From a virus (taxonomy: Duplodnaviria > Caudoviricetes), in the IMG/VR virus record IMGVR_UViG_3300029288_000066, positions 96,001-160,000 of that record: a stretch of DNA of 64,000 nt. One strand, 5' to 3'. The notes under the pieces were generated by a model that ran no database searches, had not been told where the DNA came from, and worked only from the letters and a program-made list of their open reading frames with translations. Positions within the stretch are counted from its first letter, which is position 1, and each line of letters opens with the position of its first letter. A program made the position numbers and the translations under genes. Below are positions 1 through 59,603 of this stretch, one piece after another.

Positions 1-424
1 CACATAATTCTATCCAACTTCTTTTCATTTCATTGTTCTGGTCAAAAATCTTCATAGACTGAAAATTTGCACTTGAGAAATCCAAAGAAAGCATAAAATT
101 ACCTTCATACATTTTCAGGTGGTCTTTCGTATAGAACTTGGTCTGAGAATAATCAAATTCTTGGCACTTTTTATAAGCTTCTGACGTGGCTAAATAGTTT
201 TTGATGGTTTCATATACATAGCCCATTTTGTAATGTCCTACGTTGTTATATCCATTTTCTTTCAACCAATCTTCAAATTCAGAATAATTATTTACAGTCA
301 AAACAATATCCTTAAACTCAAAAGACTTTGAAAGTGTGTTGATATAGTATTCAAAATGTTCTTCAACAGGAATGTTGAGCTTAAAAAGCTTAGCGAATTC
401 TGCAATCTCTTTAATCTTTTTCAT
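1..424 (-). CDS. Hypothetical protein, truncated by window edge (MKKIKEIAEFAKLF...SLDFSSANF...)
   Basis: Manual translation from ATG at 424, open to position 1; overlaps stop of upstream gene. Confidence 0.8.
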   Translation of the reverse strand, partial: MKKIKEIAEFAKLFKLNIPVEEHFEYYINTLSKSFEFKDIVLTVNNYSEFEDWLKENGYNNVGHYKMGYVYETIKNYLATSEAYKKCQEFDYSQTKFYTKDHLKMYEGNFMLSLDFSSANFQSMKIFDQNNEMKRSWIELC

Positions 425-1592
425 AGAATTCTTTTCTTATTTTATTTGTTAAATTTTCAATAAATTTATGGTCGACTTTGTTTGGAAGATTTGATTTTTC
501 AAACAATTCATCCATTTTCGCAATTTTTTCTTCTGCGGTTTTAATCAAAGTGTCCAAATCAACTTTTCCGTGCCTGATATCAAGCAATTCTTTTGCATTT
601 GGTCTTCTTACAACAATTCCTTTGCCTTCGGCAATTTCGATAGACATATCAATTAGCCTCATACAATGAAGCATGTTTTTCCCATCAATTTTTTGTCCAT
701 GACTCTCAACATCAACCCATCTCTGCATATTTCTTGTTTTCAGCCAATTTTGATATTTGCTATAATCTTTGCAGTGCTGGGTATAAGCATCTTTGTTATA
801 AGAGAAAACGCAAACTGGTTTTTCTCCCTTCGGAATAGAACTTAATCTTAAATTGTTGGAAATCCCTGCGTTTTCTGAGCCGCCTTCTTTTTCGAGACCC
901 TTATATCCTAACCCAACGGTTTTGCTTTGTTCCTTAAGAACTTTTTTGTTGTGTTCTTTATCTACTTCTTCCATACACTTTGCAAAACAAAGATGTGCTT
1001 TCGAATCATAGAAAAGTGCGAACATATTCGTTGCGTTTGATACGTTTACGACGCCACAAAATTTTTGTTCATAATTATAATCCTTTAAAAACCCCTTCAA
1101 TTTTCTTGTTCCATATCCATCAATCACAAAGCAAAAGTCAATAGGGTTTTTTCTGGTTACCTTATTCTTTTCCCAGTTCATCATTTTATCCTGGCCTTTA
1201 GCTTTTTTTATTTGAGCTCTGGAATAGCCCCCAAAAGAATCAGCACATTTTTTTGTGATAAACTTATCCATTTCATTCAAAACCAAATCAAAAATTGGGT
1301 GTTTTGACACAACACAATCTTTGGGACTGTTCAAAAGCTCCAATAGTGTAGGATTTGCAGTTTCAATAAGCTGCATAAATTCGCTTAATTCAAATCCAAC
1401 AAAATCTTTATTAACGTGAACTTGTGGAATAAACCCGTACAAATAATCAGGAAGAATGTAAACAAATTTTTTGTCCACATCACTTTCTGGAGTATTCGTT
1501 CCATATGCTTGAGAACCGACAATTGTTTCAAAAACAATCCAATTGTTAGCTTTCAAAAATTCATAAAACTTTTCCGAACTTACATTTACCAT
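411..1592 (-). CDS. DNA pol-beta superfamily nucleotidyltransferase (RlaP/YcgL/T4 NrdC.11-like)
   Basis: GSQAYGTNTPESDVD motif, NPTLLELL, C-terminal KNMLHCMRL...LLDIRHG...SNLP. Confidence 0.85.
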   Translation of the reverse strand: MVNVSSEKFYEFLKANNWIVFETIVGSQAYGTNTPESDVDKKFVYILPDYLYGFIPQVHVNKDFVGFELSEFMQLIETANPTLLELLNSPKDCVVSKHPIFDLVLNEMDKFITKKCADSFGGYSRAQIKKAKGQDKMMNWEKNKVTRKNPIDFCFVIDGYGTRKLKGFLKDYNYEQKFCGVVNVSNATNMFALFYDSKAHLCFAKCMEEVDKEHNKKVLKEQSKTVGLGYKGLEKEGGSENAGISNNLRLSSIPKGEKPVCVFSYNKDAYTQHCKDYSKYQNWLKTRNMQRWVDVESHGQKIDGKNMLHCMRLIDMSIEIAEGKGIVVRRPNAKELLDIRHGKVDLDTLIKTAEEKIAKMDELFEKSNLPNKVDHKFIENLTNKIRKEFYEKD

Positions 1593-18479: not shown

Positions 18480-19103
18480 TCATAATTTTTGTTCTTCTAA
18501 ACTGATTAAATATTCAAGCTCTTCATTTATTTCTTTTGAAAATTCTTTGTATAATTCTTTTCCAAGCTTTGTTCTAAACTTTAAAACCTTATAAAAACTT
18601 TCCTGATTCTCCAGCTGTTTTTTATAGTCAATTTTTGACTCCTTCTGCAAACCCAAATAATTTGCCTGCAGTCTCGTCGGTTCAAAAAGTTGTGTCATAT
18701 CAGCATCTCTTATTACCTTTTGCTGGGTACTTAATTTGTCGTCATCAATCTTATAGGGAAATTCCGTTGCATCAAGAATTTCATTAATTTTTTCTAAATC
18801 AAAATCAAGTTCACTTTCTTTCAAAAACTCCTTAACCCCTTCTTTAGCATTCTTTATGTTTACATCATCTTTCTGCTCTCCAGCCGTATGATTGTAATCG
18901 TGAAAAATTGCTGCAATTAATAGCTCCTTCATTTCTTTGTCACTTAGTTTTTCAACCTTACCAATGTAGTAAGAAAAAACCGTTACGATTATGTTGTGAT
19001 TTAAATTGTGATACGGAGAATAGAGAGATTTACTGTTCTCAATAATGAAGCTTAGCGCCTTGCCTAAACATTCAAATTTTTTAAAGACTTTTACGAAATT
19101 CAT
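18480..19103 (-). CDS. HD-domain phosphohydrolase, class I cyclic nucleotide PDE-like
   Basis: PYHNLNH, AAIFHD, IRDAD. Confidence 0.8.
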   Translation of the reverse strand: MNFVKVFKKFECLGKALSFIIENSKSLYSPYHNLNHNIIVTVFSYYIGKVEKLSDKEMKELLIAAIFHDYNHTAGEQKDDVNIKNAKEGVKEFLKESELDFDLEKINEILDATEFPYKIDDDKLSTQQKVIRDADMTQLFEPTRLQANYLGLQKESKIDYKKQLENQESFYKVLKFRTKLGKELYKEFSKEINEELEYLISLEEQKL

Positions 19104-19165
19104 ATACTTATATTTTAATTTTTAATAAATATAATGTTAAAAATTAAAAATATAAATACAATTTG

Positions 19166-19238
19166 TAGAAATGATTGGATTTGAACCAACGACCTTTTCC
19201 ATGTCACGGAAACGCTCTGCCAACTGAGCTACACTTCT
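19166..19238 (-). tRNA. tRNA-Val(GAC)
   Basis: Cloverleaf; anticodon arm TTTCC-GTGACAT-GGAAA. Confidence 0.9.
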
Positions 19239-19240
19239 AT

Positions 19241-19425
19241 AGTAAGAGTCCGAAGTCTTTTTGCCCTTCCTCTTATCCATTCCGCCACAGAATGGCTTAA
19301 GCCTCCAGGGGATGACCGCTGACTGAAGGACTCTCTAGACCCCGTATATCAGCTTTTACATTTTAATTTAAGTGACGGTTTAAACTTATAAATGTCACTT
19401 ATAAATATGTAAAAGTTTTGGGTTG
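19241..19425 (-). ncRNA. Unidentified structured region (two long hairpins) inside tRNA operon
   Basis: GAGTCC/GGACTC-closed hairpin with CCATTCTG/CGGAATGG tip; adjacent CTTTTACAT..TAAGTGAC/GTCACTTA..ATGTAAAAG inverted repeat. Confidence 0.45.
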
Positions 19426-19500
19426 TGGAAACACTTGGATTCAAACCAAGGACCCTCTGGTTGTAGGCCAGATGCTCTAAATCAGCTGAGCTATGCTTCC
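19426..19500 (-). tRNA. tRNA-Val(TAC), C33 variant
   Basis: TCTGG-CCTACAA-CCAGA. Confidence 0.88.
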
Positions 19501-19508
19501 GAAATTAG

Positions 19509-19581
19509 TGGGAGTGGAGGGAATCGAACCCCCTAAAAATTGGATGTAACCCAACTGCCCCAGCCGTTAGACGCCACTCCC
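19509..19581 (-). tRNA. tRNA-Val(TAC)
   Basis: GTTGG-GTTACAT-CCAAT; GGTTCGATTCC T-arm. Confidence 0.82.
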
Positions 19582-19590
19582 GTAAAAAAA

Positions 19591-19943
19591 ATAAGATGAG
19601 CATAGCCAGAGTTCTGTTTTATTTTAGCATTTGTCTGGCAAAATGACTCGTCAAACTGCCGTTAGCCTCTACCAGGTCATTATAGAATTGAAGGTTCCCA
19701 TTCTAGACCCATTTGAGTTGCACACCGCCATTTGGCTATTTATTTAAAATAAACGTTGCACCAGTAATAACGATTGTAATTCGTGGCTTTCGGGTTACTG
19801 ATTTATTTGGCGCACTCTAACCCATTTTTCTATTTTGATGCCAATCCTAACAACTTTAACATTACAATCTTCTGATTCCTTCTTAATGATGTGCTCTGAG
19901 CTTCCTCATGTATTAATTACATGCGCTAAATCCTCTTTCTTAT
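19591..19943 (-). ncRNA. rnpB: RNase P RNA
   Basis: P4 strands GAGGAAGCTCAGAGC and ACAGAACTCTGGCTA; P3 CATGTA/TACATG; P2 TTTAGC/GCTAAA; about 350 nt. Confidence 0.85.
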
Positions 19944-20814
19944 TTTTATTAATTTTCCATCGTTTTTTTTGACAGTTATCCGAACAAAATCTTTTATGAT
20001 TATATTCTGTGTTAAATTTTTTCCCACAAAACCCACAAGTTCTATTTAAATAACTTTCTTTTACTATTGTTTCCCATTTGTGATTATAACATACAACTGG
20101 ACTTATTCCGATAAAATTTAAAAACTCAAAAACCTTTTTATTTGGTATTATAATTCTATTGGTACTCTCTTTTAAATAGGCATCAAACTCATAAAAATTC
20201 AATTTTTCAATTAAAACTTTATTATCTTCTTTGGAAAATGAATCAGTGCAAAAAACAGCCCCAACCTGATTATCTAAAGTCCCATCCCCTAAATACCAAT
20301 GCAGAACAACGGTTCTGTTAAGTTCTATATCTTTGGGAACTATTTTTTTTCCATTTGGATACCACTTTTCTCTTAATTTAGTAAAACACTTATTTGCTCT
20401 TGATGTTATAGTAAAATAATCATTCCCGTTGCTATATCCACTATGCCCTTTTCCGCTGTACTGTGACAACTCAAATCCAAGTTGTTCTGCTAAAAAATCA
20501 ATGTATTCTTTAAAAACACAAGAATGAGTAAAAGATGAATTTTGGTTATTGATTATTCTTTTGCAATGTCCATCAGAAAGTAAAGACCCATTTATAACAT
20601 CTAAGTCATTTTTTGTCAAAACTATTTCTTCTAAATTCTTTTTTGACTCATCTGAACACCTTAAAGAACAAAATCTGTTTGCCTTATGTTTCCTTTTTAG
20701 AAATTCAGCTCCACAAATTTCACATCTTCCTTTAATATAATATTCATAACCAGTACCGCTTTTACGTTTTTTTTTGTAAGAACCATCTTTTGTTATTTCG
20801 AAATCTCCTATCAT
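19906..20814 (-). CDS. LAGLIDADG homing endonuclease with zinc-finger termini
   Basis: INGSLLSDG and HWYLGDG motifs; CxxC...FCSxxC at both ends. Confidence 0.88.
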   Translation of the reverse strand: MIGDFEITKDGSYKKKRKSGTGYEYYIKGRCEICGAEFLKRKHKANRFCSLRCSDESKKNLEEIVLTKNDLDVINGSLLSDGHCKRIINNQNSSFTHSCVFKEYIDFLAEQLGFELSQYSGKGHSGYSNGNDYFTITSRANKCFTKLREKWYPNGKKIVPKDIELNRTVVLHWYLGDGTLDNQVGAVFCTDSFSKEDNKVLIEKLNFYEFDAYLKESTNRIIIPNKKVFEFLNFIGISPVVCYNHKWETIVKESYLNRTCGFCGKKFNTEYNHKRFCSDNCQKKRWKINKNKKEDLAHVINT

Positions 20815-20889
20815 ATATTTATTCTTTTATATAAATATATACAAAAAAGGAGAAAAAACAAAATTATTAAAAATAATGTTTCAAACAAC

Positions 20890-21132
20890 TTATTTTCTCA
20901 TCAGAATCCCACCCCTCCAGGTCAAACCTTTTCCCCAGTAATACTTTCCATCCTTTGACATTGCCCAAACATTCATGGCCTCATCCATGTATACTGGAAG
21001 ATTTTCAAATTGCTCCATGGCAATTTTTGTTTTTGTTCTTCTTCTAAAAATTCTGTTGGCAAATCTTTTATCTTTTTTTTCAGACCCCCCACCAATGCCA
21101 AAAATGGGAGTTTTTCTTCTTGAGTTGCTCAT
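20890..21132 (-). CDS. Small basic hypothetical protein (MSNSRRKTPI...)
   Basis: Likely start at 21132; K/R-rich. Confidence 0.7.
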   Translation of the reverse strand: MSNSRRKTPIFGIGGGSEKKDKRFANRIFRRRTKTKIAMEQFENLPVYMDEAMNVWAMSKDGKYYWGKGLTWRGGILMRK

Positions 21133-21229
21133 GTTTTCTAAATTTAAAAATTTAAAAGACCGCAGAGCTCCTTCCATTAAAATAACTTTTCATGATAATT
21201 TCTTTTTTATAAATATTTTTAAAAAACTG

Positions 21230-21301
21230 TTGTTCTGCAGGGACTCGAACCCCGACTATCTTCATCCAGAGTGAAGCGTGTTGCCATTACACTACAGAAC
21301 A
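21230..21301 (-). tRNA. tRNA-Gln(CTG)
   Basis: CTTCA-CTCTGGA-TGAAG. Confidence 0.92.
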
Positions 21302-21306
21302 ATTTG

Positions 21307-21386
21307 TACCCTCCGCAGGACTCGAACCTGCAATTTCAGCTCCAATTACGATTACAAAGTTCGTAGCTTTGCTCGGCTAGGAAGGC
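21307..21386 (-). ncRNA. Atypical D-armless tRNA-like RNA with ACG (Arg) anticodon arm and 23-nt variable region
   Basis: Acceptor GCCTTCC/GGAGGGT, CAAAG-CTACGAA-CTTTG, GCAGG-TTCGAGT-CCTGC. Confidence 0.65.
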
Positions 21387-21391
21387 ATTTG

Positions 21392-21465
21392 TGACCCTTG
21401 AGGGATTCAAACCCCCAACCCCGAAATCCGTAGTTTCGTGCTCTATTCAGTTGAGCTAAAAGGCC
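21392..21465 (-). tRNA. tRNA-Arg(ACG)
   Basis: CGAAA-CTACGGA-TTTCG. Confidence 0.9.
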
Positions 21466-21470
21466 GTTTG

Positions 21471-21543
21471 TGGAACTGGGTGTCTTCGACACACCGACCC
21501 ATTGCTGTTCAGACAATTGCTCTTCCAACTGAGCTACAGTTTC
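21471..21543 (-). tRNA. tRNA-Phe(GAA), C37 variant
   Basis: ATTGT-CTGAACA-GCAAT; T-loop GTCGAAG. Confidence 0.78.
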
Positions 21544-21551
21544 TTGTTTTG

Positions 21552-21625
21552 TGGAACCTCCCAGATTTGAACTGGGGCAAACCTGGATTTTCGGTCCAGT
21601 GCTCTACCAACTGAGCTAAGGTTCC
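21552..21625 (-). tRNA. tRNA-Phe(GAA), C33 variant
   Basis: CTGGA-CCGAAAA-TCCAG. Confidence 0.85.
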
Positions 21626-21724
21626 ATTAATTCTCAAATCTGAGCGGCTGGGTAGGTAGCATTTTGCATACACCACTCAAACTTGAGAATAATTTTTAAT
21701 CACAACATGTCAAAGACCTTGATG

Positions 21725-21800
21725 TTGCCTCACTAGGATTCGAACCTAGACATGCTTTTTCCGTCAAAGGGAAACGTGCGGCCAATTACACTATAAGGCA
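21725..21800 (-). tRNA. tRNA-Gln(TTG)
   Basis: TTTCC-CTTTGAC-GGAAA. Confidence 0.87.
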
Positions 21801-21805
21801 ATTTG

Positions 21806-21878
21806 TGGAGATAGCAGAACTTGAATCTGCGACTTTCACGTCTTCAGCGTGACACTCTACCATCTGAGTTACATCTCC
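21806..21878 (-). tRNA. tRNA-Phe(GAA)
   Basis: TCACG-CTGAAGA-CGTGA. Confidence 0.9.
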
Positions 21879-21899
21879 ATTATTTAAAGAACTTTCTTG

Positions 21900-21973
21900 C
21901 TATTCTGCCTGGGCTCGAACCAGGACTCTTTTGAACCAAAATCAAACGTGTTTGCCAATTACACCACAGAACA
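21900..21973 (-). tRNA. tRNA-Gln(TTG)
   Basis: TTTGA-TTTTGGT-TCAAA. Confidence 0.9.
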
Positions 21974-21989
21974 ATATTTTAAAGAACAT

Positions 21990-22024
21990 AAAAAAACCCC
22001 AGGGTTTTTGACCTTGGGGTTTTC
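21990..22024 (-). terminator. Attenuator terminator, Gln/Phe/Arg/Val operon
   Basis: ACCCCAAGG-TCAAAAAC-CCTGGGGT + T-tract; 5' arm complementary to GACCTTGG in leader ORF. Confidence 0.85.
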
Positions 22025-22043
22025 ATTAAATTATATATTTAGT

Positions 22044-22139
22044 TTAACGACATAACACAGCCAAGGTCTTTAGTGCTTGTTGCACAAAAAACACCACCTG
22101 AAAAAAGCGCTGACTTGATATGTTTGTTAAATTTTTCAT
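22044..22139 (-). CDS. Attenuator leader peptide MKNLTNISSQRFFQVVFFVQQALKTLAVLCR
   Basis: 12 consecutive Q/R/F/V codons; between promoter and terminator. Confidence 0.85.
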   Translation of the reverse strand: MKNLTNISSQRFFQVVFFVQQALKTLAVLCR

Positions 22140-22150
22140 TACTTTCTTTT

Positions 22151-22216
22151 TTATTTAAATAGTTCAATTTTTTACTTTCTACGCAAAGATACAAAAAAAG
22201 TTACATTAAATGCAAG
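22151..22216 (-). promoter_or_regulatory. tRNA-operon tandem promoter repeat, copy 1 (TTGCA..TATCTTTG host-type plus TATTTAA late-type)
   Basis: Near-identical to 43921-43985 and 59538-59603. Confidence 0.8.
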
Positions 22217-22243
22217 AAAAAATCAAATTATTTTTATTTTATT

Positions 22244-22546
22244 TTATTTTGAGTCGTGTTTTTTAGCAATAGCTGGCGTCTTCATTTTCATTATTTGTCC
22301 AGCATTTGTTCTTCCATCATAGTCAACATCTACTACAATACTGCCACATTCAGTACACCATCTTGCCACTTGAGAACTTCCGCCATAAGTGGATTCTGCT
22401 TCTAATATCACAATTAATTTGTGATTTCCTTTTAAACATTCTTCCATAATTTCACTTTTATATTTTATTACACTTTTCCTGATGCTTGGTATCAGTCCAA
22501 CATTTATCAAACTCTTCACAATTCCTGCAGTGGTCAATGTATTCAT
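22244..22546 (-). CDS. Hypothetical protein (start may be 22447)
   Basis: ORF track. Confidence 0.55.
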   Translation of the reverse strand: MNTLTTAGIVKSLINVGLIPSIRKSVIKYKSEIMEECLKGNHKLIVILEAESTYGGSSQVARWCTECGSIVVDVDYDGRTNAGQIMKMKTPAIAKKHDSK

Positions 22547-22602
22547 CTCCTATAACACCAAATAAATGCAATATATCTTGCATTGCATATCTTCGGTCAC
22601 CC

Positions 22603-22896
22603 TCACTCATCCCGTAAAGCCATTAATATTCCTTTAAGCACCTCCTTTTTGCTCAACTCATACATAAATTCAATCCTATAATATGGTTCTGTGCTCATTG
22701 TTGGAGTTGAATAGTGGACAAGCTTAAATAGAACAATATCTCTATTTTCAATGCTATCACATTTAACTGAACACACATCGCAGCCATCAACATTATAGCC
22801 GCTTTCTTTCATGTATTCTTTTATTTGTTGGCGTAAGTCTGTTTTTTCATTTATTACCACCAAACCAAAATCTTTTTTAATGTCACTGTTTTCCAT
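22603..22896 (-). CDS. Hypothetical protein
   Basis: ORF track. Confidence 0.6.
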   Translation of the reverse strand: MENSDIKKDFGLVVINEKTDLRQQIKEYMKESGYNVDGCDVCSVKCDSIENRDIVLFKLVHYSTPTMSTEPYYRIEFMYELSKKEVLKGILMALRDE

Positions 22897-22903
22897 ATTA
22901 TAG

Positions 22904-23185
22904 TTATGCACAATTAAAACGTATATGAAAGTAATGCTGTGCTATGAATCCATCTTTTACTTTCATAAAAAAAGTTATCTCGTAATTTGGATTTAAATTT
23001 TTTGAACAATAGTGATTATATAATAAATCGTGCATTCTTTTCAAATCGTAATCTATTATAACATCTCCTTCTATATCCATTTCGTGTCCGCAAGAACAAG
23101 TCGTGTTAAATCCATTATCCCTTAATAATTTTACGATTTCTCTTACGGGCTCTTCAATATTTTCTTCGTACCAATTCATATTCAA
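22904..23185 (-). CDS. Hypothetical protein (TTCSCGH motif), within attC-like cassette
   Basis: ORF track. Confidence 0.65.
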   Translation of the reverse strand: MNMNWYEENIEEPVREIVKLLRDNGFNTTCSCGHEMDIEGDVIIDYDLKRMHDLLYNHYCSKNLNPNYEITFFMKVKDGFIAQHYFHIRFNCA

Positions 23186-23200
23186 AAAATTTAATTATTA

Positions 23201-23260
23201 ACTGTGCATAACAAAGTGTAAAAAACATTAAAACGATTTTTTACACTCAACCGTTATGTT
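23201..23260 (+). mobile_element. attC-like imperfect palindrome
   Basis: GCATAAC...AGTGTAAAAAA-loop-TTTTTTACACT...GTTATG; complementary core GTTATGCACA at 22903. Confidence 0.55.
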
Positions 23261-23436
23261 TAATTATTTTTGTTTTAATTCTTCAATCAAAAGTTTTTTT
23301 ACTTGCTTTCTAATTTTTTTAGGTATCACTATTTCTGGGACGCCTTCTTCAACTGTTATTGCAGATTCAATTTGAAAGGCTTCGCATTTAATTATTTTGG
23401 TTTTCAGTTTTAAATTTATCTCTTTCATAATTTATA

Positions 23437-23625
23437 TTATTTTACCTTACGCACTTTCTTTTTAATAAAAATTTCCCTGTGTGTGTCCCATCTACAATAT
23501 TTCCGTTCAACACACATCGGTCCTTGTCCAAATATACATAAGCTACAAGGGTTTTTATCAAGCTGTTCCTTTAACGATTTGTCGTCATCGAAATTTTTAC
23601 TTTCTACAATAAGATTAAGTTCCAT
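23437..23625 (-). CDS. Hypothetical Cys-rich protein
   Basis: ORF track. Confidence 0.55.
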   Translation of the reverse strand: MELNLIVESKNFDDDKSLKEQLDKNPCSLCIFGQGPMCVERKYCRWDTHREIFIKKKVRKVK

Positions 23626-23634
23626 TTTATTTAA

Positions 23635-23928
23635 TTATTTGATTTGTTTACCGTTAAGTATCATTCCCAATGCAGAATCATCACTGCTGTCTTCCCAATG
23701 CTTTTTCAAAATTTGTTTTATTTCATCTATAAGACCCTTTTCAATTTTACCATCTAATTTGAGTATTACATTTTCATAAGCATCAGCCTGTGCTTTTTTG
23801 CAGATATAAACTGCATCGCTTCTGTCTAAGAATTGATGGTTTTCAAATTCTTCTTTGAACAGGTTTCTCCAATATCCTCCAGAACTAACTTGCCTACAAA
23901 AGATATCTTTCCATGATTCTTTTTCCAT
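23635..23928 (-). CDS. Hypothetical protein
   Basis: ORF track. Confidence 0.6.
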   Translation of the reverse strand: MEKESWKDIFCRQVSSGGYWRNLFKEEFENHQFLDRSDAVYICKKAQADAYENVILKLDGKIEKGLIDEIKQILKKHWEDSSDDSALGMILNGKQIK

Positions 23929-23934
23929 ATTTTA

Positions 23935-24411
23935 TTATTCAGTATTTTTAAAAATTCCCTTTTTCTTTAAAAAATATTCTTTCAGCATTTCTCGTCTCAA
24001 CTCGATATGTTTCACTATCCATTCATGCCCAGCATCAACACGTTTTCCCCCATATTCATAATAATGACACAGAGGAAGCGTTGTTCTGCTCAATTGGGTT
24101 GCTTTGTCAAAATATTTTTTTAATTTTACATCTATGGCATTTTTTATCTTGGCTTTAATAACATCGTCAACAACTTTTTCTTCTTTCTTTACAAGTTCTT
24201 TGCCAAGCTTTTTTGCCGCATGACCGCTCAGAGTTTTAAATCTTTCTTCACCTGAAAACAACCAATACCAATATCCTTCGATGGAATCAAAGTCTCCATC
24301 TACTAATGTAATCGGAGTATAGGAAAAATTACTAAGCCATCTTCCAAGTTTCGTTTTTGCCCTGGAATATATGTTAATGTGGGTTGTTCCGTCTTCACCT
24401 TCAATAATCAT
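23935..24411 (-). CDS. NADAR-like phage protein
   Basis: LSNF...FDSIEGYW...AKKLG pattern; likely start MIIEGE. Confidence 0.55.
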   Translation of the reverse strand: MIIEGEDGTTHINIYSRAKTKLGRWLSNFSYTPITLVDGDFDSIEGYWYWLFSGEERFKTLSGHAAKKLGKELVKKEEKVVDDVIKAKIKNAIDVKLKKYFDKATQLSRTTLPLCHYYEYGGKRVDAGHEWIVKHIELRREMLKEYFLKKKGIFKNTE

Positions 24412-24515
24412 ATCAATTTTTATATAAATAATGCTGGATTGCCAACTCACCGTATGGGGCGTGGAGAGTAGGACTCTCGGCCAATGTTGACAGTTTATGC
24501 CCACTCCAGCACATT

Positions 24516-24971
24516 TTATCTACTAACTTTAATGTCTGCTTCTGGGTACCTATAACAAGCACCCAGGTAATCTTCAACGAAATTAACAAGACCGTTGTAA
24601 GTGCCCCACCCGTTTTCTGGGTTAAGTTTTTTGTATTTTTCTGGTTCTATTTTAAGCTTGTGTAATCCTTCACGCAATGGGTCAATCAACTCTTTTGCTT
24701 TTGTAATTTCAAGCTCTTCTGGTCTCCATAAATGTTTGTATATGCCAGCCTCCTCAGCCATATCAGTCAAATTATGAGTGATATTCGCAGAAAAAACCTC
24801 ATCACTTTCAACCTCTTGCGGCACCAATTTGACAGGTTCTCTTCCAGGATTTCTTTTGTTCCATTCCTCTATGGAAATTTCCTTTGTTTGTCCGCCTTCA
24901 CGAACAAATATACCAGATGATTCTTTTACCACCGCAGCACCTTTAAGATTTAAAGAAATATCTAAGCTCAT
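24516..24971 (-). CDS. Conserved phage hypothetical (MSLDI...NITHNL...NPENGWG)
   Basis: ORF track. Confidence 0.7.
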   Translation of the reverse strand: MSLDISLNLKGAAVVKESSGIFVREGGQTKEISIEEWNKRNPGREPVKLVPQEVESDEVFSANITHNLTDMAEEAGIYKHLWRPEELEITKAKELIDPLREGLHKLKIEPEKYKKLNPENGWGTYNGLVNFVEDYLGACYRYPEADIKVSR

Positions 24972-25206
24972 TTTAACCTCCCTTTATTCCAAAGTTATTT
25001 TTCCATTTAAAATATCTTCTCTGATTTTTTCTTTATCTTCAAAGACTTCTTTAATGAAGTGAACACTCTTTGGGTCGGTTAATTCTTCCAGCTGCTGTAG
25101 CAGCATAGCTCTGCCATCTGGAACATTCATTTGTATTACTTTTCCTTTTTCTTTTTCCATGCTTGTAAAATTGGTTTGTCTCTTATACGAAAAAATATTT
25201 TAAAGG

Positions 25207-25566
25207 TTACTTGGATATTGTAATTGTAGAATAAAAATCTATATTAACTGGTGTGCTTGCATATCTAACAAATTTGCCATCTAATTGTGAATCAATCTCT
25301 AAAAGCACATAATCTATTGGCATTTCAGCAAAATAAAGTTTGACGAGATTTTTCCCCATCTTCCCTGGAGAAAATTTGTAATATTTAATTTCTTTATTAA
25401 CTTCATTCAGCATATTCCAAAGATTCTCAGAAAAGATTTCTATCACTGGAGTATATATCGACAAATAATCCTTTTTTTTAGAAATCAAGCCATAATAATA
25501 AAGAAGCCTGTAAACGCCGCCTAATATTTCAAACGATGGAATCTTGTCTTTATATAATATTTCCAT
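25207..25566 (-). CDS. Hypothetical protein
   Basis: Likely start MEILYK. Confidence 0.55.
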   Translation of the reverse strand: MEILYKDKIPSFEILGGVYRLLYYYGLISKKKDYLSIYTPVIEIFSENLWNMLNEVNKEIKYYKFSPGKMGKNLVKLYFAEMPIDYVLLEIDSQLDGKFVRYASTPVNIDFYSTITISK

Positions 25567-25918
25567 TTCCTTCCTTTCTGTGCAAAAAACAATCTTGGGT
25601 ATGATACTGAAATGTGTTTGGAATAAATAAAACATCCTTTTTTTGCTTCTCACAATACCCAAAATTAATCATTGCTTCTTTTTTATTAAACTGGAACTTC
25701 ATAGATTCTGCTTCTGTCATCAGTCTATCCCACATTTCCAAATCATAAAATCTATCTTTATACCACTTTGCTTTTTTAATTATCTTTCCTCTTATTAAAT
25801 GAAAATAGTCTAATTGCATTTTGTGGCTAAAAGCCGATGATTCTTCAAATTTCTGAAGATTTCTTTTCATAAAAAAACAATCGTTACAATTACAGTCTAA
25901 TTTTTGTAACTCTATCAT
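25550..25918 (-). CDS. Hypothetical Cys-containing protein
   Basis: CNCNDC motif. Confidence 0.65.
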   Translation of the reverse strand: MIELQKLDCNCNDCFFMKRNLQKFEESSAFSHKMQLDYFHLIRGKIIKKAKWYKDRFYDLEMWDRLMTEAESMKFQFNKKEAMINFGYCEKQKKDVLFIPNTFQYHTQDCFLHRKEGNGNII

Positions 25919-25936
25919 GCCTGCAGAATTACATTT

Positions 25937-26332
25937 TTAAGTATATTTTATCACAAAATCCACACAAGCGTTATAAACAGCCCTGTGAGATACTTGTAGA
26001 ATTGCATCTTGATAAATTTCTTTATCCGTTTCTTCTTTTTTTAGGTCACAGACCCCTTTATGCTGCACTACATTGACATATCCGTCTGGTTTTGATGTGT
26101 CGTGCCACTCTTGAATGAAAACCTCTGTCTCGTCATCTTTTATCGAAAGTAAAACTCTCATTTTATACCCGTCTCTTGGGTTATGGTTTATTTTGTGCAT
26201 AATCCACCTTAAAAATTCGAATCCAATTACTGGGTCATGTGGAGAAAATTGACTGTAATCTGCTTCATCATATCCAAGATACTTAAAAAGAATCTTGTTG
26301 TATTTTTTTGGATTTGCTAGATAATTTTCCAT
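25937..26332 (-). CDS. Hypothetical protein
   Basis: ORF track. Confidence 0.65.
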   Translation of the reverse strand: MENYLANPKKYNKILFKYLGYDEADYSQFSPHDPVIGFEFLRWIMHKINHNPRDGYKMRVLLSIKDDETEVFIQEWHDTSKPDGYVNVVQHKGVCDLKKEETDKEIYQDAILQVSHRAVYNACVDFVIKYT

Positions 26333-28735: not shown

Positions 28736-30166
28736 TTAACGATTTCTTTTCATTTTTAATTCTCTTTGAGCCTCTCTTTCCTGAGTTTTCTTCTTTTCCA
28801 ATCTTCTTTCTTTAAAGGTAGGTCCAGAGTTTTTGTCCTTTATGTTTAATAAAGGCTTTAGTCTATCAATAATGGTAGCAGTCGGCTCAATAGCCGCTTC
28901 AATCATCTTTGAGCTTTTATACGAATTCGGAGCCTCATCTATAGTGCCACGCACAACCGAAGTAGAATATATTCCTTCCATTTGTTTTCTAAAAGTATCC
29001 ATGTCAAGAGTCTCTTTTGCTTTTGTTCTTGACATGCATCTTCCAGCCCCATGAGGTGAAGAAAAATTCCACTCAACATTTGATTTGCCTTCGCAAACCA
29101 ATATTCCATCTCTCATATTGAATGGGATAATCATTCTCTCTCCAACATAAGAACGGATAGCACCTTTACGAATAATAAAATCCCTAAAGTCAATAAAATT
29201 ATGGATACTTTCTATTTTATCAACTGGGATAATTCCTCCTAATATATTACAAACAATATTAAGCATCATTTCTCTGTTGAACTGTGCGTATTTTTGGGCG
29301 ACAAGCATATCAATAAGATATTCAAAAGCAGCGTTTCCTTCCAAAAATTCCATTCCTTTAACATCAAAATCGAAATCAAGGCCTAATTCTTTTTTTGCCT
29401 CAGAAATTAAAGAAGAAATCTTTGATTTATCTTCAGTGTTTTTTGTGATTTCTTCAATTTTGGCTCTTAAAATGTCGTTTCTGTTGTGGTCAAGTCCCTT
29501 CTTTGCCTTGTCCTGGTGATATTCACAAATCATTTTTCCAAAATTTCTTGACCCAGAGTGAATAGTTACCCAAACATCCCCACAACTATCTGATTTTGAG
29601 ACTTCTATAAAGTGATTGCCCCCACCGAGAGTTCCAATTGACAACTCAGCACGATTTGGCTTCATTCCAATCTTCTTACATAAAGCTCCAAAATCTTTAT
29701 AATCGTATTTACTGTAAGAATAGTTAGTTCCAAATTTTACATTATAAGCCCTAATAAAGGCCAGCATTTCATTATTAAGCACTTCCCAATGAAAGTATTT
29801 ATCAAATGAAAATTTATCATTAAAATTGAATTTAAATTCTTTTTCGTGAGTATTAATTCCCATAGGAACGTCTCTTCTTAATCTATCATCGAATTCTTTT
29901 AAAGTAATGGTTAATTTGCTACCAATGTTTGCTGATAGCATACCGCAGCCTATATCCACAGAGACGACATTAGGAATTATTTTAATTCCCATAGGCATTG
30001 TAAATCCAACACAACTTCCCTTCCCTGCGTGTCCGTCTGGCATTACAACAACTCTATTATCGAATGCAACATGACTAATCATCCTATAAACTTGATTAAT
30101 CATTTCCTGTTCAAACTCATCAATTGTTAAATATGCCGTTGTAAATTTCCCCTTAAGCTCTATCAT
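28736..30166 (-). CDS. rtcB: RtcB RNA ligase
   Basis: MPDGHAG, VDIGCG, GTLGGGNHFIE, HSGSR, HN, HGAGR. Confidence 0.95.
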   Translation of the reverse strand: MIELKGKFTTAYLTIDEFEQEMINQVYRMISHVAFDNRVVVMPDGHAGKGSCVGFTMPMGIKIIPNVVSVDIGCGMLSANIGSKLTITLKEFDDRLRRDVPMGINTHEKEFKFNFNDKFSFDKYFHWEVLNNEMLAFIRAYNVKFGTNYSYSKYDYKDFGALCKKIGMKPNRAELSIGTLGGGNHFIEVSKSDSCGDVWVTIHSGSRNFGKMICEYHQDKAKKGLDHNRNDILRAKIEEITKNTEDKSKISSLISEAKKELGLDFDFDVKGMEFLEGNAAFEYLIDMLVAQKYAQFNREMMLNIVCNILGGIIPVDKIESIHNFIDFRDFIIRKGAIRSYVGERMIIPFNMRDGILVCEGKSNVEWNFSSPHGAGRCMSRTKAKETLDMDTFRKQMEGIYSTSVVRGTIDEAPNSYKSSKMIEAAIEPTATIIDRLKPLLNIKDKNSGPTFKERRLEKKKTQEREAQRELKMKRNR

Positions 30167-43267: not shown

Positions 43268-43342
43268 ACTATTTTTATTTATAAATAGTATAAAAAAAGA
43301 GTATTACAACCTTTTCGAACCTAAATTTCAAAGAACTTTTTG

Positions 43343-43737: not shown

Positions 43738-43765
43738 TTATTTTCAATATTTTAAAGAACGATGT

Positions 43766-43826: not shown

Positions 43827-43907
43827 TTACGCAAAATCATACCACGTCAACTTGCTTTGGGAGCAATTGGCTAGTAAGAGGCATAAACACAAAGATATAG
43901 TTTTCAT
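43827..43907 (-). CDS. Attenuator leader peptide MKTISLCLCLLLANCSQSKLTWYDFA
   Basis: TTG TGT TTA TGC CTC TTA CTA run. Confidence 0.85.
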   Translation of the reverse strand: MKTISLCLCLLLANCSQSKLTWYDFA

Positions 43908-43920
43908 AATATATTTCTTT

Positions 43921-43985
43921 CTATTAAATAGTTCAATTTTTTACTTTCTACGCAAAGATACAAAAAAAGTTACATTAAATGCAAG
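43921..43985 (-). promoter_or_regulatory. tRNA-operon tandem promoter repeat, copy 2
   Basis: Near-identical to 22151-22216. Confidence 0.8.
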
Positions 43986-55981: not shown

Positions 55982-56063
55982 AACAAACAAATTTACTATA
56001 AATATACAAAAAAATTCGAATATTCGATGCCAGATTAAAAATATTTCAAAGAACTTGTTTTTG

Positions 56064-56534: not shown

Positions 56535-56618
56535 TTATGCAAAAATCTCCCAGCCACTAAGTTTTTTAATCTTAATGCTAATAGATTTCTTTATAATTAC
56601 AGTTAACAACATATTCAT
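56535..56618 (-). CDS. Attenuator leader peptide MNMLLTVIIKKSISIKIKKLSGWEIFA
   Basis: ATT ATA AAG AAA TCT ATT AGC ATT AAG ATT AAA AAA. Confidence 0.85.
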   Translation of the reverse strand: MNMLLTVIIKKSISIKIKKLSGWEIFA

Positions 56619-57983: not shown

Positions 57984-58016
57984 ATGTTTTCAATATTTTA
58001 AAGAACTTATTCTTAG

Positions 58017-58189: not shown

Positions 58190-59035
58190 TTATTTTTTAT
58201 AATCTTTTAGCCATTTTCTAATTGCATTGTCAGAAACACCATATTTTTTGCCAACCGCACAATAATTTGTTTTTTTAATTTCTTGCATCAACTGTTCATA
58301 AGACGGCCTTTCAACCCTTCTTCTACTTTTTTTATAACAATCTATACATTCTTTTGCTTTTACATCCTTCTCTTTCCCACATTTGCAAACTCTTGTTTTT
58401 TCACTTTTCCTTTTAATGTTTCTAAAACAATATGTGTTTAACGTAGAATCACAATTTGGACATATGATTCTTAGATTTTTTAATCTATTATCCATATGAT
58501 TTCCATTAATATGGTCAAGAATTAAAATTAATTTATTTCCATTCCAATTTACATCCTGTCCACACAACTCACAACATTCTTTTTTTAAACCTTCATCATA
58601 CAATCTTTTTTTAAAATTAGAAGGTAAGCTTTTTCCAACTACAAAATAATATTCAATTGGGTTCTTTTTGCAACCAGTAATTACACCTTGTTCTTTTAAT
58701 CGCTTATACAGCTCTTTTTTTCCAGTAAAATGTGAAATGTCTACATTATATCGAGCAATATAGTTTTTTATTGTTGTAAAACTTGCAGATGCTGGATTAA
58801 TATTAAGATTTCTTAAAGCATCAGAATAAGAATATGCATTTTTAACAGCTTCTAGTATTTCTTTTTCTGAATATTTCCAAATTCCATACTTTGCAACTTT
58901 TAAACCAAGACGCTTTGCTTTATGAGCTACGGAATGTTTACTCTTGCCTAACTTTCGAGAACAATATATAGCACCATGCTCTTCATAATTGTTCTTAAGA
59001 AATAAAATTTCATTTTCTACCCATTTATATTTCAT
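58190..59035 (-). CDS. HNH homing endonuclease
   Basis: CELC...LDHINGNHMDNRLKNLRIICPNC; C-terminal HTH. Confidence 0.9.
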   Translation of the reverse strand: MKYKWVENEILFLKNNYEEHGAIYCSRKLGKSKHSVAHKAKRLGLKVAKYGIWKYSEKEILEAVKNAYSYSDALRNLNINPASASFTTIKNYIARYNVDISHFTGKKELYKRLKEQGVITGCKKNPIEYYFVVGKSLPSNFKKRLYDEGLKKECCELCGQDVNWNGNKLILILDHINGNHMDNRLKNLRIICPNCDSTLNTYCFRNIKRKSEKTRVCKCGKEKDVKAKECIDCYKKSRRRVERPSYEQLMQEIKKTNYCAVGKKYGVSDNAIRKWLKDYKK

Positions 59036-59101
59036 ATTGACATCTTTATTATAAATATGCCAAAAAATTATTTTTTCAATATTTCAAAGAACTTAATTTT
59101 G

Positions 59102-59349: not shown

Positions 59350-59375
59350 ATTTCAAAATTTTAAAGAACGATATA

Positions 59376-59431: not shown

Positions 59432-59521
59432 TTATTTTAAGATAGACATATTACACCCAGACACACATGTATTATTATGTTTGTTGGTCTTCGTGTTAAT
59501 ATGTATACTTAAAGCTAACAT
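59432..59521 (-). CDS. Attenuator leader peptide MLALSIHINTKTNKHNNTCVSGCNMSILK
   Basis: CAT ATT AAC ACG AAG ACC AAC AAA CAT AAT AAT ACA. Confidence 0.83.
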   Translation of the reverse strand: MLALSIHINTKTNKHNNTCVSGCNMSILK

Positions 59522-59537
59522 TTCAATATTTCCTTTT

Positions 59538-59603
59538 TATTTAAATAGTATGATTTTTTTACTTTCTACGCAAAGGTACAAAAAAAGTTACATTAAATGC
59601 AAG
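59538..59603 (-). promoter_or_regulatory. tRNA-operon tandem promoter repeat, copy 3
   Basis: Near-identical to copies 1 and 2 (TACCTTTG variant). Confidence 0.8.

Follow-up and report, generated by a model that had tools for sequence, protein, structure and literature searches.

The 64-kb window studied here, by which we mean the whole stretch of DNA analysed, lies within a single virus contig of 228,886 bp with a GC content of 33% and an estimated completeness of 82%. The contig carries 53 tRNA genes plus a permuted tmRNA (called by Aragorn as circularly permuted, C1:84078-84424, with a 26-residue tag), and its tRNA genes are all on the minus strand, where they form blocks according to amino acid. 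At attenuator 1, which precedes one of these blocks, the order on the minus strand is a conserved box (the putative promoter), a leader ORF, a predicted terminator, the motif GTTCTTTAAAAT and tRNA-Gln (Table 1). The tRNA-Gln gene, the first of operon 1, starts at 21973, and since only 17 nt separate it from the T-run of the terminator, a standard promoter lacks room between the two. The operon as a whole contains about 11 tRNA genes, for Gln, Phe, Arg (anticodon ACG) and Val. The initial annotation had described it as Gln3-Phe3-Arg-Val3; the layout was recovered but the count was not, for Aragorn calls four Gln genes, one of them an atypical gene of 81 nt (21306-21386, minus strand; Gln(ttg) with the anticodon at position 30, scored by Rfam at only 33.7 bits). 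The third Val tRNA (19509-19581) is an Rfam call only. A convincing minus-strand terminator was not found between the embedded ORFs and the Val tRNAs, and the GC-rich stretch at 19243-19418 (minus strand), located between two of the Val tRNAs, had no Rfam match. Homing-endonuclease ORFs are found inside tRNA operons at two places in the window (19906-20814 and 58190-59036, both on the minus strand). The terminase gene of the phage is split, and an opposite-strand ORF adjoins it (L010). Homologues of the ORF at 22244-22546, just upstream of the locus, were located on short contigs without tRNAs and gave no useful synteny.

Table 1. Features of attenuator 1 and operon 1, the other tRNA operons of this phage, and comparable elements elsewhere (positions refer to the window unless a record is named)
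Feature	Position	Strand	Basis or remark
Conserved box, putative promoter	22168..22216	-	Recurrence of the 46-nt box
Leader ORF 1, ATG + 30 codons + TAA (31 codons)	22044..22139	-	ORF call and frame control
Putative regulatory run, 12 Gln/Arg/Phe/Val codons QRFFQVVFFVQQ, codons 10-21	22077..22112	-	
Putative antiterminator segment with GACCTTGG (22068->22061), inside the leader ORF	22060..22069	-	Duplex with terminator 5' arm
Predicted intrinsic terminator, hairpin 22023->21993 (-15.2 kcal/mol) + 7-T run ending at 21990	21990..22023	-	Folding
boxA-like motif GTTCTTTAAAAT	21976..21987	-	Between terminator and first tRNA; recurs elsewhere
Eight tRNA genes: Gln(ttg), Phe(gaa), Gln(ttg), Phe(gaa), Phe(gaa), Arg(acg), 81-nt Gln(ttg)-like, Gln(ctg)	21229..21973	-	Aragorn, Rfam
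95-aa ORF embedded in operon 1, no family assigned	20890-21177	-	
LAGLIDADG homing endonuclease embedded in operon 1	19906-20814	-	Pfam PF03161
Stretch of about 320 nt between endonuclease ORF and Val tRNAs	19590-19912	-	
Three Val tRNAs (tac, tac, gac), distal part of the presumed operon	19165..19581	-	Aragorn, Rfam
Leader 2, 7/7 Leu/Cys run (TTG, TGT, TTA, TGC, CTC, TTA, CTA)	43827..43907	-	
Operon 2, five Leu isoacceptor tRNAs and one Cys	43590-41941	-	
Leader 3, 13/13 Ile/His/Asn/Thr/Lys run (ACG, ACC, ACA; AAG, AAA; ATA, ATT)	59432..59521	-	
Operon 3, Asn, His, Thr (cgt, ggt, tgt), Lys (ctt, ttt), Ile (tat, gat), Met	59188-54332	-	
Leader 4, putative internal attenuator, 10/12 Lys/Ile	56535..56618	-	Downstream Lys x4, Ile x3, Met x1
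Leader 5, 13/17 Gly/Tyr/Pro/Ala/Asp/Met			Downstream tRNAs exactly those
Leader 6, 11/11 Ser/Trp/Arg (Arg only AGA, AGG)			Downstream Ser, Arg(tct, cct), Trp
Copies of the boxA-like motif in the window	21976-21987, 21881-21892, 43749-43760, 59358-59369, 59081-59092, 57995-58006, 56043-56054, 43325-43336	-	
211-kb phage, leader with 13/13 Lys/His/Ser/Phe/Trp			tRNAs His, Phe, Ser, Lys, Trp
211-kb phage, leader with 9/9 Leu/Tyr			tRNAs Tyr and seven Leu
211-kb phage, leader with 17/18 Pro/Arg/Glu/Thr/Val/Ala			tRNAs for those amino acids
211-kb phage, leader with 13/14 Ile/Met/Gln/Asn			tRNAs for those amino acids
211-kb phage, leader with 9/9 Gly/Met/Asp/Cys/Arg			tRNAs for those amino acids
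323-kb phage, leader with 22/22 Tyr/Gln/Ser/Leu/Pro/Glu/Cys/Phe			tRNAs for those amino acids
323-kb phage, His-rich leader			Two His tRNAs
323-kb phage, Thr/Ser/Ile leader			tRNAs for those amino acids
323-kb phage, leader with a 23/23 run			11-amino-acid tRNA block
tRNAs linked to GTGGCAAT...GTTACTTCG elsewhere	L014:1137-1265, 1497-1624, 1750-1879; L016:2312-2440		

The initial annotation had also placed an RNase P RNA inside this operon and suggested, on that assumption, that it may be co-induced with the tRNAs. This part of the proposal was not confirmed: RNase P RNA gave no Rfam match at gathering score, nor at E<=1 in 18900-22300, and a search of the whole genome with RF00010 at E<=10 found none. 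The candidate stretch upstream of the Val tRNAs had no match among the Rfam models and folded no better than its shuffles (z -0.4), and BLAST found no homologue of it in the relatives. Near 19908-19893 and 19619-19604, strands resembling P4 can be made out by eye, and the ends of the stretch, GAGGAAGCUCAGAG ... ACAGAACUCUGGCU, might pair as a P4-like helix that has a single bulged U; it is possible that the stretch is a very divergent RNase P RNA. At gathering score, the window contained neither a T-box (RF00230) nor another Rfam cis-regulator, and a search of 18900-22300 at E<=1 gave none either.

The box upstream of the leader ORF contains an exact match to TAnnTTTG, TATCTTTG, at 22191-22184 on the minus strand, 52 nt 5' of the leader ATG, where it would represent a Bacteroidota-type -7 element. 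An identical copy of the 46-nt box is located at 43937-43982 and a copy with one mismatch at 59555-59600 (0 expected by chance), diverged copies precede both tRNA blocks outside the window, and the internal attenuator (leader 4) is preceded by a promoter unlike the 46-nt box. The conserved box is a putative promoter, as judged from this recurrence and from the TAnnTTTG match. We take TAnnTTTG promoters to be of the Bacteroidota type, and from them the host is probably a member of the Bacteroidota. A search of IMG/VR with the promoter motif gave no matches.

The leader ORF was claimed to carry twelve consecutive Gln, Arg, Phe and Val codons, and this run (CAG CGC TTT TTT CAG GTG GTG TTT TTT GTG CAA CAA) was found intact at 22112->22077. 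Decoding by the tRNAs encoded downstream was also borne out: under strict wobble rules, all 14 Gln/Arg/Phe/Val codons of the ORF are readable by the anticodons CTG, TTG, ACG, GAA, TAC and GAC. The proposed correspondence between the CGC codon and Arg(ACG) agrees with the genes as well, the Arg codons of the leader being CGC and CGT and the only Arg tRNA of the operon being ACG; four codons are GTG, and the operon carries Val tRNAs. Gln, Arg, Phe and Val together account for 17.8% of the residues in the phage proteins, which gives a binomial p of about 1e-9 for a 12/12 run. Of the 1,474 ORFs in the genome (about 229 kb) that begin with ATG and span 20-60 codons, all scored for this set of amino acids, leader 1 was the unique top scorer (9.0 vs 6.6 for the next, as -log10 p). 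Cognate residues made up 14/31 positions in the reading frame vs 10/31 and 5/31 in the other two frames.

The choice among Arg codons follows the anticodons in the other operons as well. The leader of the Ser/Arg/Trp operon, with Arg tRNAs TCT and CCT, uses only AGA and AGG for Arg, and 12/13 Arg codons belong to the codon box of the Arg anticodons of their own operon (CGN with ACG, AGR with TCT or CCT). For all amino acids taken together, the codon-level match was not above the expectation from codon usage (202/216 codons decodable vs 197 expected), and this test carries no information, since the isoacceptor sets of the operons are almost complete.

The same design is repeated at 6/6 tRNA operons of the phage, with a promoter, a short ORF, a GC-rich hairpin followed by a T-run and, usually, a boxA-like box. 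The runs had p values of 3e-11 for the Ser/Arg/Trp leader and 9e-8 for the Leu/Cys leader; the run statistics of leaders 4 and 5 were modest taken alone. When the six leaders were scored against the six tRNA sets (a 6x6 table), the true pairing ranked first among the 720 assignments.

Relatives were found by an exact IMG/VR search for the T-run plus the box, which returned two giant phages of 211 kb and 323 kb, with terminase fragments 27% and 24% identical, respectively, to the terminase of this phage (itself about 27% identical to T4-like gp17). These two phages contain nine further operons with matched leaders; the tRNA groupings differ between the phages and the leaders follow their own grouping. 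Across the three phages, the own tRNA set was the row and column maximum for 15/15 leaders, and 0/300,000 permutations were as good. In the 211-kb phage, the ORF of the Ile/Met/Gln/Asn leader (L016:2798-2968) has no stop codon before the terminator and reads through it. A gene for ribosomal protein bL12 (Pfam PF00542, PF16320; L016:3046-3423) is located between this terminator and the tRNAs, and the ribosomal protein would therefore be under the same gate.

The design is not universal: two other phages have a boxA-like motif before tRNAs and no clear matched leader. One is a record among the relatives found through RtcB (52% identity), in which an ordinary gene, instead of a leader, is located directly upstream of the tRNA cluster. 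The second is a fourth record, L027, where Val, Arg, Tyr and Asp tRNAs are preceded by a terminator and the box; it is ambiguous, with only a 51-aa ORF of no clear enrichment. Among cultured-phage records, a blastn search with 19000-26000 matched scattered tRNAs only.

A segment starting 8 nt past the run, GACCTTGG (22068->22061), had been predicted to pair with the terminator, and it is indeed complementary to CCAAGGTC (22017->22010), which forms part of the 5' arm and loop of the terminator hairpin. The duplex between this putative antiterminator and the terminator 5' arm had a predicted energy of -14.4 kcal/mol vs -7.8 +/- 2.0 kcal/mol for dinucleotide shuffles of the upstream region (z -3.3; 2/500 shuffles as good). 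The terminator hairpin (22023->21993) has one stem mismatch and was missed by a simple terminator scan; RNAfold recovers it. In untranslated (naked) RNA, the antiterminator was predicted to pair upstream with the region of the run (P 0.85) and the terminator to form (P 0.90). To follow the effect of a translating ribosome, the RNA was masked to 10 nt beyond the A site and the ribosome was moved along the leader. The terminator probability was 0.83-0.91 as long as the ribosome had yet to reach codon 12, and again after it had cleared codon 20; an A site at codons 12-13 or 17-19 lowered it to 0.05-0.11 and flipped the equilibrium to the antiterminator. For transcripts truncated ahead of the 3' arm, pairing of the 5' arm with the antiterminator was 92% while the ribosome had not left the run, and pairing of the arm was about 42-50% or less thereafter.

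Across 11 leaders, antiterminators paired with their own terminator arms at a mean of -15.9 kcal/mol and with those of other leaders at -9.1 kcal/mol. The complementarity was better than that of shuffles in 9/11 leaders, with the segment always just 3' of the run, and weak in the remaining 2/11 (z -0.7 and -0.9). For the sister leaders, position-dependent capture of the 5' arm was seen in co-transcriptional (truncated) folds only; in equilibrium folds most of them keep the terminator at every ribosome position. The distance from the stop codon to the terminator 5' arm is 20, 20, 22, 21, 31 and 20 nt in leaders 1-6, and is 20-26 nt in 11/15 leaders of the three phages.

The layout of the locus, the alternative folds, the switch with ribosome position and the 15 recurrences in three distant phages support the original designation of this element as an attenuator. 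Judging from the sequence and its predicted folds, we consider it likely, with a probability of roughly 0.8, that the element is a ribosome-mediated (leader-peptide) transcription attenuator controlling a phage tRNA operon. We infer that the leader ORF is translated, and likewise the direction of the switch, the role of the boxA-like motif and the biological trigger. According to the proposed mechanism, transcription would start from the conserved promoter and a ribosome would translate the 31-codon leader. If decoding of the Gln, Arg(CGY), Phe and Val codons is fast, the ribosome would cover the antiterminator and reach the stop codon; the terminator hairpin, 20 nt past the stop, would then form and transcription would end before the tRNAs. 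If any codon of the run is slow, the matching charged tRNA being scarce, the ribosome would stall on the run and block the pairing between the run and the antiterminator. The free antiterminator GACCTTGG could then capture the terminator 5' arm CCAAGGTC, and RNA polymerase would read through, pass the boxA-like motif, which may confer resistance to termination, and transcribe the Gln/Phe/Arg/Val tRNAs. Leaders that are not translated would terminate, as with smooth translation (the 1:2 / 2:3 / 3:4 scheme). The attenuator would respond to any of the tRNA species in its block, like an OR gate, and, because the product of the operon relieves the stall, it would exert negative feedback on decoding capacity. 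The phage probably makes the tRNAs of a block only when ribosomes decode the codons of its leader slowly.

The same parts could also operate by transcription-translation coupling or by Rho, with no competition between hairpins; a stalled ribosome could uncouple from RNA polymerase and alter termination, or fast translation could promote read-through. We regard this as unlikely, although it would account for the retention of the terminator at equilibrium in most sister leaders and for the two weak antiterminators, and in the 211-kb phage the hairpin could be melted by the translating ribosome, as a leader ORF there continues across the terminator. However, the complementarity that is significant in 9/11 leaders always lies just 3' of the run, and with the stop codon 20-26 nt before the 5' arm in 11/15 leaders, a terminating ribosome would not melt the hairpin. 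The equilibrium of leader 1, moreover, flips as competition between hairpins predicts.

The boxA-like motif, GTTCTTT[AG]AAAT, has about 16 copies on the minus strand, nearly all of them immediately 3' of an attenuator terminator or bordering a tRNA sub-cluster. It occurs also in L005, L011 and L025, and it is common to very distant phages. We take the motif GTTCTTTRAAAT to resemble rrn boxA. By analogy, it may be a loading site for Nus factors that lets a polymerase past the gate complete the long untranslated operon. The phage tRNA operons are like rrn operons in being long untranslated operons of structured RNA, and GTTCTTTRAAAT, which follows each attenuator and marks sub-cluster edges, is reminiscent of the boxA of rrn antitermination (with NusB/NusE). 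In contrast to rrn antitermination, the phage motif, with putative Nus binding, would act downstream of a conditional terminator.

The position of the motif, conserved directly before the first tRNA and found also within clusters, could instead mean that the tRNAs have a promoter of their own, perhaps the GTTCTTTAAAAT box itself, and are ungated, the leader and terminator forming a separate micropeptide or small-RNA unit. The presence of the box in a relative without a leader would fit such an arrangement, as would the fact that the consensus scan did not list the minus-strand terminator (one stem mismatch). Nevertheless, this arrangement is improbable, more so than coupling or Rho: it leaves unexplained why leader composition tracks tRNA content in 15/15 cases and why a leader segment is complementary to the terminator arm, and the box, located no more than 14 nt from the 5' end of the mature tRNA, matches neither the sigma-70 nor the Bacteroidota consensus and resembles rrn boxA. 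Finally, short ORFs rich in a few amino acids might arise by compositional coincidence beside a gene-end terminator in an AT-rich genome, and Lys, Ile, Asn and Phe are common at 33% GC and leaders 4 and 5 are modest alone, but this is effectively refuted by the run statistics of leader 1 and of the Ser/Arg/Trp and Leu/Cys leaders, by the assignment permutations within this genome and across the three, and by the rank of leader 1 among the small ORFs.

Attenuation of each block would make the tRNA supply of these phages responsive to demand as a whole. We lean, with some reserve, towards the view that giant phages run a modular, demand-sensing tRNA supply, with the genes sorted so that each block sits behind its own multivalent leader and is transcribed when the decoding capacity of host and phage together falls. 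Such a fall could occur in a host with a mismatched tRNA pool, or when anticodon-nuclease defences cut the host tRNAs. The window encodes an RtcB-type RNA ligase (28736-30166, minus strand; PHROG 1075, E 8e-118) and an RNA-repair nucleotidyltransferase of the RlaP/pol-beta type (411-1592, minus strand; Pfam PF10127), which together are a tRNA repair kit in a tRNA-rich genome. The proximity of these two genes suggests a possible link between the attenuators and tRNA-cleaving defences.

Several tRNA genes of this phage and its relatives are unusual in themselves. In the window, some adjoin a recurring GTGGCAAT...GTTACTTCG element (at about 59345-59225, 43735-43637 and 57980-57884, minus strand), and the tRNA 3' half, consisting of the T arm and acceptor strand, appears 5' of the matching 5' half, in permuted order. 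Rfam detects tRNAs in the 211-kb relative that are about 128 nt long and contain an insert, about 55 nt in length, that ends in GTTACTTCG. The tRNAs linked to this element may be split, permuted or intron-bearing and need ligation, given the phage RtcB nearby. A suppressor tRNA with the anticodon CTA, which reads TAG, is encoded at C1:196604-196678 (L002:6606-6679, minus strand), and the equivalent CTA tRNA of the 323-kb phage (L036, about 899) is preceded by a terminator and a short ORF; the suppressor may serve stop-codon recoding late in infection.

The 1:2 / 2:3 / 3:4 scheme is that of the amino-acid operon attenuators of Escherichia coli, the mechanism of which is reviewed in PMC1183508, with pheL treated in PMC3082878. 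The phage elements resemble the ilvGMEDA, thr, trpL, hisL and pheL attenuators in their parts: a short ORF, putatively translated in the phage, in which regulatory codons form a run, at times for more than one amino acid; an intrinsic terminator; an antiterminator overlapping the 5' arm of the terminator; and, further upstream, a segment that would keep the antiterminator paired in the absence of translation. Slow decoding leads to read-through in E. coli and is predicted to do so in the phage. Unlike the biosynthetic attenuators, which regulate enzymes, the phage element would regulate tRNAs, so that its output supplies the sensed decoding capacity directly. The phage leaders also differ in sampling up to 11 amino acids that match the anticodons of the operon, in being phage-encoded, with one per amino-acid-sorted tRNA block, and in being followed by a boxA-like motif.

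In the pheM-pheST operon of E. coli, a leader with Phe codons controls phenylalanyl-tRNA synthetase. It is similar to the phage elements as a leader-peptide attenuator that acts on a component of decoding and responds to the supply of charged tRNA, but it controls a synthetase rather than tRNA genes, senses a single amino acid and is chromosomal. T-box riboswitches also sense tRNA status and choose between terminator and antiterminator upstream of translation-related genes; they contain no ORF and recognise uncharged tRNA by direct binding, for which they use a specifier codon and the T-box sequence, whereas the phage signal would lie in a translated frame. A full-text literature search, with many subscription journals outside its scope, found no publication on leader-peptide attenuation of tRNA operons in cells or viruses, and its matches for leader-peptide attenuators concerned biosynthetic, synthetase and resistance genes. 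The mechanism is thus of a known kind, and what appears to be new is the tRNA target, the self-referential logic, the multivalent matching of codons and the provision, in giant phages, of one gate per tRNA block.

The proposed mechanism concerns the regulation of phage tRNAs and the reason for the near-complete tRNA sets of giant phages. As compact, programmable sensors of codon-specific translation speed, attenuators of this type could be of use in their own right. If the proposed mechanism is true, it would represent an attenuator whose output is the very tRNAs that it senses, a direct feedback loop on decoding capacity, and it would provide a functional reason for the sorting of tRNA genes by amino acid. 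It would also mean that tRNAs are expressed on demand in a host-dependent manner, a matter of relevance to host range and to the evasion of tRNA-cleaving defences, and would explain how the expression of phage tRNAs adapts to the host.
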